In this document: positions 2,125 through 9,382 of the stretch, one piece after another
Layout of the letters: every line of letters begins with the position of its first letter
Numbering within the stretch: position 1 is the stretch's first letter
DNA from: a virus
Taxonomy: Duplodnaviria > Heunggongvirae > Uroviricota > Caudoviricetes
Strand: one strand, 5' to 3'
DNA: 9,382 bases
IMG/VR virus record: IMGVR_UViG_2740892235_000008
Position numbers and translations under genes: made by a program
The notes under the pieces: model-generated
Seen by the model: only the letters and a program-made list of their open reading frames with translations
Database searches by the model: none
Told to the model about the DNA's origin: nothing

Positions 2125-2612
2125 TAAGCCCCCACGTAATTCCCTGACAGATACCACTCTTCACCCGATACAGCGCGCTTGCTGCTTTTCCGTAAACACC
2201 GCTCACGACGCGCAAGAAAATTGTTTCGCTCTTGCTGGGAGTGGCTTTCACGGAATGCCGCCATCCACACCGTTGCAGCACGACGGTATAAGCCCCTGGA
2301 CTCCAGTTCTTCCGCCTGGCGGGTCAGGCACAAAATCACCCGGGGATCGTTAGTGCCGACATAGAAATTGCGCACAGGTCTGGATTCACGAACTGGTTGC
2401 GGTTCCGGCTCCTGCGGTATCTCAGTCAGCCGCGGGAAATGTCTGCGTGTATCCCCTTCACAACGGTGAGCCACACGCCCACTCTGACGTAACTTGCTTG
2501 CTGACTGCAGAACGCGCTGTCGTGAGTAACCTGCAAAAGCATCCGCAATGTCTCCGGAAGTACACCCCGGATGGGCTTCAATGAATTTCTGAACGTCATT
2601 CAAAAGACTCAT
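2124..2612 (-). CDS. PerC/ANR-family-like regulator with an additional N-terminal domain, about 162 aa
   Basis: ATG 2610-2612 preceded by AGGGGG with about 5 nt spacing (GTG at 2616-2618 is the alternative). C-terminal LESRGLYRRAATVWMAAF...RRERCL matches the remembered PerC/Pch signature (GLWRRAA..W...RR..CL). Stop overlaps the next ATG. Confidence 0.5.
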   Translation of the reverse strand: MSLLNDVQKFIEAHPGCTSGDIADAFAGYSRQRVLQSASKLRQSGRVAHRCEGDTRRHFPRLTEIPQEPEPQPVRESRPVRNFYVGTNDPRVILCLTRQAEELESRGLYRRAATVWMAAFRESHSQQERNNFLARRERCLRKSSKRAVSGEEWYLSGNYVGA

Positions 2613-2614
2613 GA

Positions 2615-3794
2615 TCACCCCCTGAATCCTGCCGGGATCTGGCTGTAGTCCACATTGTCGTAACTGGCTTTGAAGTACGGGTCTTCGCGTTTTTCTGTGT
2701 ACGTGCTGACGGACGGCGATAAGCGCAGGGAAAGCTCATCCCATTTTTCCCGCAGCTTCGACGGGCTGAGCACGTTNNNNNNNNNNATTTGAAGTACGGG
2801 TCTTCGCGTTTTTCGGTGTACGTGCTGACGGACGGCGATAAGCGCAGGGAAAGCTCATCCCATTTTTCCCGCAGCTTCGACGGGCTGAGCACGTTACGGC
2901 ACCAGAACGGATCGCGGCTGACGCGGCTGTACATCTCGCAGATTTGTTTATGAGTACGACCATCCTGCACACACATCAGGCGAATTTCGTTTGCCCAGGC
3001 TGTCCAGTTCGGTTCTTTGGGACGAACCACCTCGCCGTCACATTCGGCAGCCTGCTCGTACAGGGCGATGATTTTTTTCCAGAACCACTGTGCGCAGGTC
3101 AAATCATCCTGCGTCCCCCACTGGCGTTTTTTAGGGCTGAATACAACCGCATCAGGATGGCGAGTTAAAAAATCCTGTTCAGCCGTCTGCGTGTCCGGTT
3201 GCGAAGAGTCCGGACGAGAAGGTTTTTTATCTGACGGATCATGTTTTGATTTTACTGACGGATCCCCGCCAGATTCTGACGGGTGAAAACCCGCTTTTTT
3301 GCCAGATTTCGACGCATCAAATTTTGACGGGTCAGATTTTGATGCGTCAGATTTTGACGGGTCAGAATCTGACAGTTGAGAAAATGCCGCTGCCTGAAGC
3401 TTCGCAACGTTAAGCTGATAAACATTCGACGCATTGCGGTTACCCTGGCGACGCGCCTTACGCGTTAACCAGCCTTCTGCTTCCAGCCGTGCGATAGCCG
3501 TTCTGACGGTACTCATCCCCGCGCCAATCTGGCGTGCAATGGTTTCAATCGATGGCCAGCACACACCTTCGTCATTACTGAAATCAGCCAGGCGGGCCAT
3601 AATTGCCACGCTGGATAATTTCATGCCTGANNNNNNNNNNAGCCAATCTGACGGGCAATGGTTTCAATTGATGGCCAGCACACACCTTCGTCATTACTGA
3701 AATCAGCCAGGCGGGCCATAATTGCCACGCTGGATAATTTCATGCCTGACGCTGCGCAACCATCCCATACATAGCCGGTTAATTTAGTGCTCAT
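2615..3794 (-). CDS. phage replication initiator, O-like (N-terminal wHTH, Ser/Asp/Lys-rich repeat linker, C-terminal domain); spans two scaffold joins with duplicated flanks
   Basis: ATG 3792-3794 with GAGG Shine-Dalgarno 7 nt upstream; translation MSTKLTGYVWDGCAASGMKLSSVAIMARLADFSNDEGVCWPSIETIARQIG... In-frame through segment 2787-3630. True stop TGA at 2615-2617 found by hand translation (…DPYFKASYDNVDYSQIPAGFRG). The ORF-track frame after the 2777-2786 gap is an artefact. Real gene length is shorter than the coordinate span because 2672-2776 / 2789-2896 and 3520-3630 / 3641-3751 are duplicated overlaps. Confidence 0.6.
2777..2786. other. assembly gap (10 N)
   Basis: Run of n characters; about 105 bp either side are near-identical direct repeats. 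Confidence 0.95.
3224..3377. repeat. iteron-like tandem array (15-bp period; consensus CAGATTTTGACGNGT; 5 contiguous copies at 3303-3377 plus degenerate copies at 3224-3284); candidate replication origin inside the initiator gene
   Basis: Direct reading: cagatttcgacgcat / caaattttgacgggt / cagattttgatgcgt / cagattttgacgggt / cagaatctgacagtt, plus cagattctgacgggt at 3270-3284 and two CTGACGGATC-containing units at 3224-3265. They encode the SDxSK pentapeptide repeats of the linker. Lambda ori iterons lie inside O in the same way (established knowledge). Confidence 0.5.
3631..3640. other. assembly gap (10 N)
   Basis: Run of n characters; 3520-3630 and 3641-3751 are near-identical with 3 SNPs. 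Confidence 0.95.
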
Positions 3795-4943: not shown

Positions 4944-5040
4944 ATGCCCTCCAAATATTGCGCGTTATGCATGTTATTTCACGCAATTATTTTGCGCAAG
5001 TTGATTTGCTTATCACGCAATAAAGAAATGTAATAAACGC
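4944..5040. promoter_or_regulatory. divergent promoter/operator region (OR/PR/PRM-like) of immunity module 1
   Basis: Between divergent cro-like and cI-like starts. Contains dyad TTGCTTATCACGCAA (5006-5020), a weaker TTGCGCGTTATGCAT (4958-4972) and the palindrome CGCAATTATTTTGCG (4982-4996). Possible PR toward cro: -35 TTGCGC, -10 TAACAT read on the minus strand. Confidence 0.55.
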
Positions 5041-5777: not shown

Positions 5778-5828
5778 ACCTATAAATTTGCATATCTCGC
5801 AAATATCACTTGCATATCTCGCAATTTA
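5778..5828 (+). promoter_or_regulatory. candidate OL/pL of module 1: two 15-bp direct repeats TTGCATATCTCGCAA (5778-5792, 5800-5814) overlapping a sigma70-like promoter (-35 TTGCAT 5800-5805, 17-bp spacer, -10 TATCTT 5823-5828)
   Basis: The repeats share the TTGC-N7-GCAA dyad and 13 of 15 bases with the OR site 5006-5020, consistent with the same repressor binding at both. Spacing of the two copies is 22 bp. Confidence 0.45.
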
Positions 5829-5920: not shown

Positions 5921-5985
5921 AACGAACAGGCAGGACGCCCACGAAGTAGCCGCCGGTGGCGTATGAATGACCGGATGATTCGTTA
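5921..5985 (+). ncRNA. conserved 65-nt structured element, copy 1 (candidate cis-acting leader RNA, nut/put-like, or small RNA)
   Basis: Same 65-nt sequence as 8186-8250 except in a 20-nt core. Outer inverted repeat AACGAA…TTCGTT. Inner stem CCGGT(N12)ACCGG here versus CCTGG(N12)CCAGG in copy 2, i.e. two compensatory base-pair changes preserve the stem. Confidence 0.4.
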
Positions 5986-6009
5986 AATACTATGTGTAAG
6001 AGAGCGCAA

Positions 6010-6213
6010 ATGAACCGTTATTTCACATGCTCGTTTTGTGGCGCAAACGAGCTGCAGGCAAAAAAAATCATCGCCAAAGGCGGAAAAGATGAAGTTGCTA
6101 TCTGCTCTGAGTGCGTAGTCTTGTGTGTCGGGGCATTAATCAATAGCAGCACAACTATTCGGTTCACACCAAATGAGAATGCGCCTTTAGATGCGCGGAA
6201 ATCTGGAGGTTAA
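6010..6213 (+). CDS. small ClpX-type C4 zinc-finger (ClpX N-terminal ZBD-like) protein, about 67 aa
   Basis: Translation MNRYFTCSFCGANELQAKKIIAKGGKDEVAICSECVVLC… matches the remembered ClpX N-terminal zinc-binding signature ([33 protein letters not shown]). Purine-rich AAGAGAG 5 nt before ATG 6010; the ORF-track ATG at 5992 has no Shine-Dalgarno. Confidence 0.55.
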   Translation: MNRYFTCSFCGANELQAKKIIAKGGKDEVAICSECVVLCVGALINSSTTIRFTPNENAPLDARKSGG

Positions 6214-6221
6214 AGAACAAA

Positions 6222-6497
6222 ATGAAAGTCCAGATTTTAAACAATAGTGGTGAAGTCGTTTGGTCATACGACATAGCCGCTCCTGTAGATCAGAGCGGCG
6301 ATAGCTGGACCAATGGGAAACATCAGATTATGGCTGGAGTTGTATTCTCTTTACGCCGTGCTTTGGAACAGGCTGAAGTCTTTCCATCAGACCCTGAATG
6401 GAAATGGCCTTTTTCTATTTGTCCAAATTCGGAGAGTACATTTCAGAAAATTGGTCAGAAAGTCGCACTCGAAGAGCATCAGCCAACTGTTTCCTGA
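6222..6497 (+). CDS. hypothetical protein (91 aa)
   Basis: ORF-track ORF. GGAGG at 6205-6209 but with 12-nt spacing to the ATG. Its 3' 83 nt overlap the convergent ORF at 6415-6660, so the true extent of one of the two is uncertain. Confidence 0.4.
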   Translation: MKVQILNNSGEVVWSYDIAAPVDQSGDSWTNGKHQIMAGVVFSLRRALEQAEVFPSDPEWKWPFSICPNSESTFQKIGQKVALEEHQPTVS

Positions 6498-6660
6498 TTT
6501 TTTCAGGTAACTCGTCGGCATCGCAGAAACAACAACGCTCGATCATGTTGAAAGCCGATTCGTAGAACTGTTTCTGCTGAGTGTCGCTGAGACAGGAAAA
6601 GAGCGACGTTACGATGATTTTATTAATTGCATTATCAAGTTCTTTTTCATCAAAAGTCAT
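6415..6660 (-). CDS. hypothetical protein (81 aa), convergent to the preceding ORFs
   Basis: ATG 6658-6660 with AAGGA Shine-Dalgarno about 7 nt upstream (revcomp of 6661-6680 is atacataaaaggaaaatcaa). Protein-like composition with a CCFCD motif. Confidence 0.45.
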   Translation of the reverse strand: MTFDEKELDNAINKIIVTSLFSCLSDTQQKQFYESAFNMIERCCFCDADELPEKIRKQLADALRVRLSDQFSEMYSPNLDK

Positions 6661-6689
6661 TTGATTTTCCTTTTATGTATACGGGCTTA

Positions 6690-6803
6690 AAAGGATACCA
6701 CCGAGCCTGAAGTGGTGAAAAGACAGGCACATAACAGCTAAGTATTTTCAACCAGAGAGAATCCTTAGCGTTGTGGTGAATGCGGCTCAGCGCACGCGGG
6801 TTA
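6690..6803. repeat. conserved right-flank element, copy A (6725-6803 identical to 8930-9008; 6690-6724 similar with SNPs to 8896-8929)
   Basis: Direct comparison of the two stretches; copy A is truncated by the gap at 6804. Confidence 0.6.
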
Positions 6804-6813
6804 NNNNNNNNNN
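6804..6813. other. assembly gap (10 N)
   Basis: Run of n characters. Confidence 0.95.
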
Positions 6814-7165: not shown

Positions 7166-7366
7166 TTATCCATTAGATTTTTCATAAAGCTCAGGTTTAA
7201 ATGGCAACCGTCCGCAAGTTCTATATGCAGCTTCTGCTGCACGTCCTTTTGGAATTAACTGGCCCGGACGGTTTCGCCACTGATAAACGGCTTCAGTTGT
7301 TATGCCGAAAAAAGCAGCAACTTTCTCAATACTGCCGAAGTAGCTTTCGATATCGTCAGTTGTCAT
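7166..7366 (-). CDS. cro: Cro-like small HTH protein (66 aa), immunity module 2
   Basis: ATG 7364-7366 preceded by TTTGGAGGGCGT, the same leader as cro-1. Translation …SIEKVAAFFGITTEAVYQWRNRPGQLIPKGRAAEAAY is a Cro/YdaS-type HTH pattern. Divergent from cI-2. Confidence 0.65.
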   Translation of the reverse strand: MTTDDIESYFGSIEKVAAFFGITTEAVYQWRNRPGQLIPKGRAAEAAYRTCGRLPFKPELYEKSNG

Positions 7367-7463
7367 ACGCCCTCCAAACTAAGTTTTGTTAGATGCTAAT
7401 TACAAATCTATCTTTGGTCAATAAAAACTAAGATTACTTAGCAATTAAAGAAATGGTGCTCCT
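7367..7463. promoter_or_regulatory. divergent promoter/operator region of immunity module 2
   Basis: Contains 14-bp dyads CTAAGTTTTGTTAG (7379-7392) and CTAAGATTACTTAG (7428-7441); consensus CTAAG-N4-sTTAG, unrelated to the module 1 operator motif. Confidence 0.5.
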
Positions 7464-8090
7464 ATGGAAACGGTTGGTCAGCGTATAAAAGCTCTGAGAA
7501 GAGTTACCAGAACGTCCCAGAAAGAATTGGGTAAATTTTGTGGAGTAAGCGACGTTGCTGTGGGGTACTGGGAGAAAGACATCAATACCCCTGGCGGGGA
7601 GGCACTTTCGAAATTAGCGAAGTTCTTCAATACGTCAATAGATTACATTCTTTATGGTGCTGAGTTTGAAGGCAAACTCGTCACAAACATGCGCAGAGTT
7701 CCTGTAATATCGTGGGTTCAGGCTGGGCAGTTTACTGAGTGCAGGGCAGCAGAAGTGTTTAGTGAAGTGGACAAGTGGGTAGATACATCATTAAAGGTTG
7801 GTGATAACTCATTTGCATTAGAGGTTAAAGGTGACTCCATGACTAACCCTAATGGCCTCCCAACAATACCAGAAGGCGCAACAGTGATTGTAGATCCAGA
7901 TGCAGAACCTCGTCATGGAAAAATAGTCATCGCTCGACTTGATGGAACAAACGAAGCTACAGTAAAAAAATTAGTCATCGATGGCCCTCAAAAGTTTTTA
8001 GTGCCATTAAATCCTCGGTATCCCAACATCCCTATCAATGGTAATTGCCTTATCATTGGTGTAGTCAAAGGAGTTCAATACGAACTCTAA
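7464..8090 (+). CDS. cI: CI-like phage repressor 2 (HTH plus S24 autopeptidase), 208 aa
   Basis: Translation has HTH (IKALRRVTRTSQKELGKFCGVSDVAVGYWEKD) and the S24 motifs GDSM … KKL. Sequence is unrelated to cI-1 apart from fold-level motifs. Confidence 0.9.
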   Translation: METVGQRIKALRRVTRTSQKELGKFCGVSDVAVGYWEKDINTPGGEALSKLAKFFNTSIDYILYGAEFEGKLVTNMRRVPVISWVQAGQFTECRAAEVFSEVDKWVDTSLKVGDNSFALEVKGDSMTNPNGLPTIPEGATVIVDPDAEPRHGKIVIARLDGTNEATVKKLVIDGPQKFLVPLNPRYPNIPINGNCLIIGVVKGVQYEL

Positions 8091-8112
8091 GATCTCTCTT
8101 CTCTAACTAAGG

Positions 8113-8145
8113 CACCGAACTAAGAAAAGTTTGGTGTTTTCTCTT
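8113..8145 (+). terminator. rho-independent terminator downstream of cI-2
   Basis: CACCGAAC-(8-nt loop)-GTTTGGTG, an 8-bp stem with one G-U pair, followed by TTTTCTCTT. Confidence 0.55.
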
Positions 8146-8172
8146 GCCATGATAACTAAGTTAAGTTAGATT
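8144..8172 (+). promoter_or_regulatory. candidate OL/pL of module 2: -35 TTGCCA (8144-8149), 17-bp spacer containing operator CTAAGTTAAGTTAG (8156-8169), -10 TAGATT (8167-8172)
   Basis: The operator matches the module 2 OR dyad consensus; promoter hexamers read directly. Confidence 0.4.
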
Positions 8173-8185
8173 TTATATCAAAGAT

Positions 8186-8250
8186 AACGAACAGGCAGGA
8201 CGCCCACGAAGTAGCCGCCTGGGGCATATGAAGTCCAGGATGATTCGTTA
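8186..8250 (+). ncRNA. conserved 65-nt structured element, copy 2
   Basis: See copy 1; starts only about 6-8 nt after the predicted pL2 transcription start. Confidence 0.4.
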
Positions 8251-8254
8251 GCAA

Positions 8255-8279
8255 CAAAAAAGCGCCCTACAGGACGCTT
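8255..8279 (-). terminator. rho-independent terminator for the convergent cargo gene (possibly bidirectional)
   Basis: On the minus-strand RNA: AGCGUCC-UGUA-GGGCGCU (7-bp stem, one G-U) followed by UUUUUU. On the plus strand the same hairpin has one C-A mismatch. Confidence 0.65.
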
Positions 8280-8317
8280 AGCTCTTTAACAATCAGGATA
8301 TCCACAACAGTAGTAAT

Positions 8318-8809
8318 CTACAGATTGCCGTTAAGTTTTCTGGACAACTCCTCAATGGATGGAGGCGATACGTAATCCGGATTTTTATTCATCAGAAACT
8401 TATTTTCACAGTGGAGGCACCTGCTTTTATGAAAAAGCTCATCTTCGCTAACCGGGAATGGTTGAAGTATCGATACTATCTTTTGTCCAAAACATTTTGG
8501 GCAAAGATGCATGGTTATGCTGCCACCGTTCACGATTACCTCCTTCGAGTATACAAAAGTACCCGACTCAAGTTGGTTAAGGATATAGCCTTCCGTCTGA
8601 GCCTCAAAGTTTTCGAATTCTGCAATTTTAGCTTTGAGAGAAGCATTTATTTCTTGATAAGAGCCCACCAGTTCAACGAGAGACACGCATTCGCGCTGAA
8701 TAGACGCAAGCTTTGAGTTCAGCTCACCAATAGCCGCATTTACTTCAGCTTGAGTTTTTGCCTCGTTCATTAGTTTTGCAATCTGGGCTGTTTCACGAAT
8801 AGCCGTCAT
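8318..8809 (-). CDS. hypothetical cargo protein, about 163 aa: N-terminal predicted coiled coil, C-terminal CxxC…CxxC zinc-ribbon-like motif
   Basis: In-frame ATG 8807-8809 (MTAIRETAQIAKLMNEAKTQAEV…) is the first start downstream of the shared flank; the ORF-track start at 9097 would read through the shared flank. The Shine-Dalgarno is weak and a later ATG at 8768-8770 (MNEAK) is possible. C-terminal …HLCPKCFGQKIV…CLHCENKF…; stop 8318-8320; own terminator at 8255-8279. Confidence 0.5.
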   Translation of the reverse strand: MTAIRETAQIAKLMNEAKTQAEVNAAIGELNSKLASIQRECVSLVELVGSYQEINASLKAKIAEFENFEAQTEGYILNQLESGTFVYSKEVIVNGGSITMHLCPKCFGQKIVSILQPFPVSEDELFHKSRCLHCENKFLMNKNPDYVSPPSIEELSRKLNGNL

Positions 8810-8847
8810 TGCTGCCGTTAATTCAGCGATCACATTGAATACTCTTA

Positions 8848-8901
8848 TTGTTGTTGGGGATATCCAGATTAACCGAATCCTTGTTGTTGGGGAATAACCA
8901 G
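8848..8901. repeat. two about 20-bp direct repeats TTGTTGTTGGGGA(T/A)A(T/A)CCAG (8848-8867, 8881-8901) upstream of the cargo gene start
   Basis: Direct reading. Lies in the putative promoter region of the minus-strand gene, 33-bp period. Confidence 0.5.
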
Positions 8902-9008
8902 GTCCACCTCGCCTGATGTGGCTAAAAGCAGGCACATAACAGCTAAGTATTTTCAACCAGAGAGAATCCTTAGCGTTGTGGTGAATGCGGCTCAGCGCAC
9001 GCGGGTTA
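8896..9008. repeat. conserved right-flank element, copy B
   Basis: 8930-9008 identical to 6725-6803; preceding about 34 bp similar with SNPs. Confidence 0.6.
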
Positions 9009-9120
9009 AGGTTGAGGCTGACAGTCGACCTTCTGTGGATACCCACCCGCCTGGTGTGCAACCTTCGCCAGGCACCGGGAGGCACCCGGCACCACAACTT
9101 TATGCTGTGTGTAGTCCTGG

Positions 9121-9166
9121 CGGTACCAGTTTGTACCCTTGCTTCCGGCTGGTACCGTCCTTTTTT
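9121..9166 (+). terminator. large hairpin plus T-tract (CGGTACCAG-N19-CTGGTACCG then TCCTTTTTT); candidate plus-strand terminator
   Basis: 9-bp perfect inverted repeat followed by a T6 run. An allelic copy at 9258-9304 keeps the stem and carries a CTCTTTTT tract. Confidence 0.5.
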
Positions 9167-9247
9167 GCAAAACAGAGAAGAGCATCACCGGACGACGGGC
9201 TCATAACCCAATCCATCCGGGCGGCTGCCACCGCAGGTGTTCTTCTC

Positions 9248-9257
9248 NNNNNNNNNN
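9248..9257. other. assembly gap (10 N)
   Basis: Run of n characters; 9119-9247 and 9258-9382 are near-identical. Confidence 0.95.
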
Positions 9258-9382
9258 TGTACCAGTTTGTACCCTTGCTTCCGGCTGGTACCGCTCTTTT
9301 TACAAAACAGAGAAGAGCATCACCGGACGACGGGCTCATAACCCAATCCATCCGGGCGGCTGCCACCGCAGGTGTTCTTCTC

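Follow-up and report, generated by a model that had tools for sequence, protein, structure and literature searches.

Tandem repeats upstream of a lambdoid prophage cargo gene probably belong to a two-strand control module of the P22 sas/sieB type

Lambda OOP, P22 sar, hok/sok and CopA are short structured RNAs that lie opposite the translation start of their target, usually with loop-first recognition, and complementarity to the target is automatic for any such cis-antisense RNA. Closest to the locus considered here are the sas antisense RNA and the sieB/esc control region of phage P22, reportedly described by Ranade and Poteete in 1993 (Genes Dev 7:1498). According to reviews (PMC12197685, PMC10002423), sas is a 105-nt cis-antisense RNA that blocks the synthesis of SieB and permits that of Esc, thus enabling P22 to escape its own exclusion; in the same accounts sieB is expressed in the lysogen, and its translation is stopped by the antisense RNA of an infecting phage. 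Small-RNA sequencing has detected an RNA from this very region that accumulates during P22 infection (PMC13397905). The sas family is, then, already known, and the module described below is a further variant of it.

The window, by which we mean the entire 9,382-nucleotide stretch of viral DNA that was analysed, consists of three segments joined end to end, with 10 N between neighbours at 6804-6813 and 9248-9257, so that comparisons from segment to segment are comparisons between different genomes. Its last 125 bases (9258-9382) are a second copy of 9123-9247, apart from three differences. Segments 1 and 2 represent alternative alleles of one immunity region, that of an SfII/CPS-53-like lambdoid prophage, an assignment on which a P4-type satellite hotspot was rejected. 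Segment 2 encodes a cro-like gene (7166-7366, minus strand) and a cI-like gene (7464-8090, plus strand), beyond which a promoter scan placed a predicted PL (TTGCCA-17-TAGATT, 8144-8172, plus strand). An OL operator, CTAAGTTAAGTTAG at 8156-8169, overlaps this promoter, and its motif recurs at both OR sites (7379-7392 and 7428-7441). The plus strand carries cI, the predicted PL and the early-left genes from yfdP to int, and the cargo gene with which we are concerned is encoded on the minus strand. From 8926 onward, segment 2 matches segment 1 from 6720 onward.

The cargo gene (8318-8833, minus strand) begins with the GTG at 8833 assigned by PGAP, preceded by a Shine-Dalgarno sequence, AAGAG (8846-8842, minus strand), and a terminator-like hairpin (8260-8279, minus strand) stands at its 3' end. 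The 171-aa product (WP_000559922.1) has an N-terminal coiled coil and a Cys-rich C-terminal part and matches PHROG 1244 (E 9e-60); neither Pfam nor PADLOC gave a match above threshold. Distant relatives found by tblastn are hkaP of HK620 and orf25 of D3112/DMS3-like Pseudomonas phages, and a relative at 49% identity occurs in a Klebsiella phage. An in-frame N-terminal extension of the protein (ORF 8318-9097) was discarded, given that the PHROG profile and the PGAP start both point to the GTG at 8833; it is also contradicted by other cargos, which lie in other frames. At least one 173-aa member of the family shares the in-frame ATG that the cargo gene has at codon 9 (8809).

Two repeats precede this gene. 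Copy 1, TTGTTGTTGGGGATATCCAG, occupies 8848-8867 and copy 2, TTGTTGTTGGGGAATAACCAG, occupies 8881-8901 (both plus strand), with their starts 33 bp apart; the copies share an exact 13-nt core, TTGTTGTTGGGGA (at 8848 and 8881), and a terminal CCAG. A sequence-only reading of the window had described them as near-identical 20-bp repeats, which is accurate for copy 1, an exact fit to the proposed consensus, but not for copy 2, whose 21 nt include a one-base insertion, such that an ungapped match to the 20-nt consensus fails even with three mismatches allowed. The pair itself is solid: an exact direct repeat of at least 13 nt within 50 bp arose in only 4 of 2000 first-order Markov simulations of the segment, and the core pair is the sole repeat of this kind in segment 2. 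The repeats do lie, as that reading had placed them, between the cargo start (GTG 8833) and the flank in common with the other allele (8926 onward), a boundary that is valid just for the two alleles of the window, since across genomes the repeats are themselves part of the conserved flank. A small ORF running through both repeats (33 bp being 11 codons) was considered and dropped because variants have a spacing of 34-35 bp.

The distribution of the repeats is far wider than that of the cargo. The 97 bases from 8834 to 8930, comprising both copies and adjoining sequence, occur in 1513 of 5426 complete E. coli genomes, versus about 333 for this cargo gene. In other genomes, similarity to the window begins exactly at copy 1, within copy 1 or at copy 2, and a different gene lies to the left: in strain D2 it encodes a protein of the ECs1072 family, and in CFT073 an unrelated one of 170 aa. 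A Rac-like prophage of O157:H7 strain 86-24 has this cargo together with the repeats, next to a different right flank. The repeats, then, do not belong to this cargo gene in particular. Two scans of viral contigs yielded about 130 distinct contexts, in which both flanks vary freely around a conserved module of about 92 nt that consists of copy 1, a spacer, copy 2 and then CCACC..GCCTGA.GTGG..AAAAG.CAGGC. At least 31 unrelated minus-strand cargo families begin directly to the left of the module, their start codons at a fixed distance from CCACC (70-74 nt in modules with two hairpins, 37-42 nt in those with one).

Several module types can be distinguished by their repeats. Type A, the form in segment 2, is near-identical across 11 enterobacterial genera while both of its flanks diverge. 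Types B (CTGTAGGGG), C (TTGACTGTGGAA), D (TTGCATTGGGG) and E (TTGTGGGGG) each carry their own repeat twice, 34, 33, 34 and 33 nt apart, respectively. Copies 1 and 2 co-vary between types A-E, a pattern that fits either one recognition sequence common to both or a 33-34 bp unit that was duplicated again and again. The conserved 3' element, CCACCTCGCCTGATGTGGCTAAAAGCAGGC (8904-8933, plus strand), is near-invariant in about 80 variants and contains overlapping stems, CCAC/GTGG and GCCTG/CAGGC, which imply either a pseudoknot topology or alternative hairpins. Neither stem varies in an alignment of 41 two-hairpin modules; K-12 Rac has compensatory versions of them.

Single-hairpin forms of the module also exist, and one of them is found in segment 1 (6640-6734, plus strand; covariance model, 46 bits, E about 5e-11). 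The real match there is made up of a hairpin at about 6671-6698 and the 3' element, the 5' part adding little, and a minus-strand hexamer, TATCCT (6697-6692), abuts GGTGG. The cargo genes of segment 1 lie at 5992-6213 (plus strand), 6222-6497 (plus strand) and 6415-6660 (minus strand); they encode a 73-aa protein whose C4 zinc finger is of the ClpX type (Pfam E 1.4e-10) and members of two small PHROG families, and the minus-strand gene uses the single-hairpin module.

The relationship to sas was established with a covariance model (R1) whose training set comprised P22 sas, lambda, Rac and types B-E, and contained no type A sequence. This model matched the whole module of the window at 8849-8939 (plus strand) over its full length (1-92/92) with 63.5 bits and an E-value of about 7e-16. 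As the model was built free of type A, the match identifies the segment 2 module, by homology, as a variant of the sas/sieB control region. Lambda possesses a type B module at 34394-34480, directly upstream of sieB and before orf28/ral, and a diverged type B lies between sieB and the small RNA KilS in K-12 Rac. The P22 sas sequence (PMC13397905) is itself a type B module extended by about 25 nt into sieB and by 17 nt past CAGGC.

P22 sas and the window have in common two tandem YTGTNGGGG units 33-34 nt apart, followed by CCACC..GCCTGA.GTGG..AAAAG.CAGGC. Like sas, the window module lies immediately upstream of a gene that occupies the sieB slot and runs against the PL operon, and is antisense to that gene; a conserved stem-loop, which we call HP2, is found on the PL-sense strand of the module. 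The repeat motif differs, being TGTTGGGGA in the window and CTGTAGGGG in P22, and the stem of HP2 has changed in sequence with its pairing kept. The target differs too: the cargo has no SieB family match, and a PHROG 1244 protein takes the place of SieB. Lambda and Rac agree with the window in module, position and orientation but are of type B, with 3' stems GCCCGG/CCGGGC and CCACC/GGTGG in Rac; at one and the same aligned position on the minus strand, the lambda type reads TAAACT and Rac reads TAACAT.

Two other groups of systems deserve comparison. Unlike OOP, sar, hok/sok and CopA, the module appears to carry the core promoter of its target within its own DNA, and the cassette is reused for dozens of unrelated targets. 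Akin to lambdoid moron cassettes, the locus presents a cargo that has a promoter and a terminator to itself and is oriented against an early operon, although here promoter and leader are a conserved common module rather than each moron's own. The module matched no Rfam family and is annotated in none of the genome records examined. Its C/A-rich minus strand gave rise to the side idea of a GcvB target or an AgvB-like sponge, which found no backing: the AgvB/AsxR anti-sRNA families (RF02702, RF02703) had no match at E up to 10 over 8100-9248, and the supplements of Tree et al. do not contain the repeat motif.

On the minus strand, the comparison of variants supports an earlier suggestion that the repeats are part of the cargo promoter. 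A predicted -10 hexamer, TAATCT (8871-8866, minus strand), lies in the spacer between the repeats; TAnnnT occupies the aligned position in 40 of 41 variants, represented by 12 different hexamers, and its TA constitutes the sole invariant bases of the spacer in the 41-module alignment. Situated 17 bp upstream across variants is TTCCCC, TACCCC or TTTCCA, and the predicted -35 of the window, TTCCCC (8894-8889, minus strand), is a weak one (3/6) that coincides with the loop and 3' arm of HP2. Copy 2 would accordingly span the -35 position, and copy 1 the start of the 5'UTR. A simple scan for the sigma-70 consensus gave nothing at 8834-8960, the -10 having emerged from the comparison only. Together, the conserved TAnnnT and the weak -35 are the signature of a predicted sigma-70 promoter for the cargo, and the repeats, real and functional-looking, appear as part of that promoter region. 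The predicted 5'UTR is about 28 nt long, unstructured and C/A-rich, and starts with the complement of copy 1 (AUAUCCCCAACAACAA).

The position of the -10 differs between the two forms of the module. In 28 of 39 single-hairpin modules, TAnnCT abuts GGTGG, which it never does in two-hairpin modules, and the minus strand over the 3' element of single-hairpin variants reads TTTTCA-18 bp-TAnnCT. This relocation makes the two-hairpin form look like the product of a 33-34 bp duplication that shifted the -10 toward the gene.

On the plus strand, copy 2 is embedded in HP2 (8877-8903), a hairpin whose stem pairs 8877-8888 with 8893-8903 around a GGGG loop at 8889-8892. Its consensus was obtained with RNAalifold from 41 diverged two-hairpin modules (alignment A2), in which 93% of cells are paired and compensatory changes occur at 8 of 10 pairs. 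Covariation scores 0.312, compared with 0.156 for shuffles (0/500) and about 0.05 for slid controls, figures to be read with the knowledge that the alignment amounts to about 5-8 independent lineages, that shared descent inflates the covariation counts and that the structure was derived from the same sequences on which it was tested. The pairs include 74 G-U against 7 A-C, an excess that assigns the structure to the plus strand, in the direction of PL, and not to the cargo mRNA. The fold of the single window sequence is unremarkable (z = +0.52). For copy 1 (HP1), there is no consistent consensus fold across module types; on the plus strand it makes up the initial stem-loop region of the sas-like RNA, which is only weakly structured and in which a small UUGG/CCAG stem is kept, as judged by eye, through the wobble variants CCGG, UUAG and UCAG, and the fold depends on the type. 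By comparative analysis, HP2 is an RNA hairpin of the plus strand, borne on a transcript that we infer.

These observations can be united in a single model, which we consider probable: a hairpin unit occurs twice in tandem, as the two repeats, within a compact two-strand control module homologous to the sieB-early-left region of P22, lambda and Rac. On the minus strand, the module would supply the promoter and a short 5'UTR to whatever cargo occupies the sieB slot. Transcription would start near 8860, directed by the -35 TTCCCC in copy 2 and the -10 TAATCT in the spacer, and the leader would consist, in order, of the complement of copy 1, the Shine-Dalgarno AAGAG and the GTG at 8833; such a promoter would keep the cargo on in the lysogen. 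On the plus strand, the predicted PL (8144-8172) would be the source of transcription toward the module, and early-left transcription at infection or induction would give rise to a structured RNA of roughly 90-125 nt that contains the copy 1 region, HP2 with the GGGG loop of copy 2, and the conserved 3' element. The RNA may derive from PL read-through or from a promoter of its own; at 8840-8845 there is a weak TACTCT, similar to what P22 and lambda have at this position but missing upstream of other cargos. The 5' part of this RNA would be complementary to the 5'UTR and ribosome-binding site of the cargo, and, by analogy with P22 sas, the RNA would block translation of the cargo and so let the phage escape it. 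Co-variation of the two copies is to be expected if HP2 displays for recognition the very sequence with which the RNA would pair to the start of the mRNA; repeated duplication would have the same result. We propose expression of the cargo in the lysogen, a hairpin RNA in the PL direction and, after the example of sas and sieB, its pairing with the leader to block translation.

The chief competitor to this model grants only the minus-strand half. It holds that the module is no more than promoter and 5'UTR, that copy 2 is the leftover of a 33-bp tandem duplication which moved the -10 gene-ward and that the plus-strand RNA is functionless in this variant. The conservation of the -10 and the weak thermodynamic signal agree with such a view, as does the ancestral appearance of single-hairpin variants, from which two-hairpin variants differ by the loss of the TA beside GGTGG. 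We nevertheless regard it as unlikely: it does not accommodate the covariation of the HP2 stem with its plus-strand G-U bias, nor the retention of the 3' element in two-hairpin variants that have lost the -10 adjacent to it, nor the accumulation in P22 infection of RNA from exactly this region (PMC13397905).

Binding sites for a regulator, as the sequence-only reading had also suggested, would make the repeats operator-like DNA sites on the same helix face, three turns apart, through which a phage or host protein represses or activates the cargo promoter. Direct repeats at a spacing of 33-34 bp that is kept across types, copies that co-vary between types as sites for one protein would, and a placement straddling the predicted -35 and +1 positions are all in keeping with such sites. 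The repeats are, however, unlike the operators of either immunity type in the window, CTAAG-N4-CTTAG in segment 2 and, by eye, TTGC-N7-GCAA in segment 1, where a search with CACGCAA recovered just the two OR sites; CI operators of the OL kind had in any case been set aside, as the predicted OL/PL is at 8144-8172 and the motifs differ. Moreover, the same type A repeats accompany LexA-like, RacR and e14 YmfK repressor types alike, and a search, though not a systematic one, found no candidate protein co-varying with repeat type. A DNA site also leaves unexplained why copy 2 forms a hairpin that covaries and whose G-U pairs favour one strand, features that point to RNA. Nor does the proposal that the cargo is held off until infection sit well with the homologous P22 logic, which is the reverse, the gene being on in the lysogen and shut off by the antisense RNA of the infecting phage. 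We judge operator-like sites to be quite improbable, and the repeats to be better explained by a variant of the sas/sieB module than by repressor operators.

Least likely of all, and in our estimation very improbable, is a cis effect of the plus-strand structure on the early-left transcript that carries it, in place of an antisense effect on the cargo; the structure might, for example, be a processing site or an attenuator, or begin an STnc100/KilS-like small RNA located downstream. In favour of this, an STnc100-like match on the same strand begins at 8945, shortly after the end of the module at 8939, and has a terminator at 9120-9167, and the 3' element is devoid of a U-tract, which suggests processing. 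Against it, the right flank past CAGGC changes freely between loci, many of them devoid of STnc100-like sequence, and the left boundary keeps a constant distance from the start of the cargo.

If the sas/sieB-type model is true, a mechanism of P22 reported in 1993 from one phage extends to a cassette present, counting type A alone, in more than one quarter of complete E. coli genomes, and a single cassette controls at least 31 unrelated prophage cargo families. The model would further offer a testable answer to the question of how a temperate phage avoids harm by the cargo that its own lysogen expresses, and would help annotators to locate the cargo slot together with its promoter. Of particular interest are how widespread the module is, the number of its cargos and its double coding. 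More tentatively, and with rather less than an even chance of being right, we suggest that the sas-type module may be a general, portable 'antisense-gated socket', in which dozens of unrelated cargos that lambdoid prophages express in the lysogen would share one fixed promoter-leader cassette and, whichever is installed, would be silenced by the early-left hairpin RNA of the phage, with self-immunity built in. The repeats would represent a derived two-hairpin form of this socket: duplication of 33 bp would have shifted the promoter and provided a free recognition loop with the same sequence as the part of the RNA that is complementary to the start of the mRNA. Many of the cargos in such sockets would probably be exclusion or defence genes.

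Several further elements in the window merit description. Downstream of the module, a match to STnc100 (RF02076) extends over 8945-9168 (plus strand) with 40.3 bits, below the gathering score of 47. The region ends in a strong terminator hairpin (9120-9167), and toward the 3' end it is similar to KilS, a small RNA of K-12. The 'frameshifted hypothetical protein' that PGAP places here is probably this STnc100-like RNA gene instead. At the start of this region, a third, partial copy of the repeat context, GAATCCTTAGCGTTGTGG at 8964-8981, may be compared with GAATCCTTGTTGTTGGGG at 8875-8892, and may be what is left of one more copy of the duplicated unit.

Just downstream of the predicted PL, a separate conserved element is present in both alleles (8187-8250 and 5922-5990) and in K-12 e14 (L127, about 6110-6180). 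Its second hairpin covaries (CCTGG/CCAGG, CCGGT/ACCGG, CCCGGT/ACCGGG), and the element occurs in 51 phage records, including SfII, SfV, ST64B, ZF40 and mEp237. It has no Rfam match and no sequence similarity to HK022 at 24-30 kb, and could be a nut- or put-like antitermination signal.

Repeats of other kinds are found in segment 1. The sequence TTGCATATCTCGCAA occurs twice directly past the cI terminator of that segment (5788-5802 and 5810-5824, 22 bp apart), and the pair likely represents the OL operators of this immunity type, judging by the TTGC-N7-GCAA motif (compare OR at 4960-5020). A 16-nt exact direct repeat, ATTTTGACGGGTCAGA, lies at 3321-3336 and 3351-3366, 30 bp apart, within an O-like replication gene (2596-3624, minus strand), and its copies are probably origin iterons.
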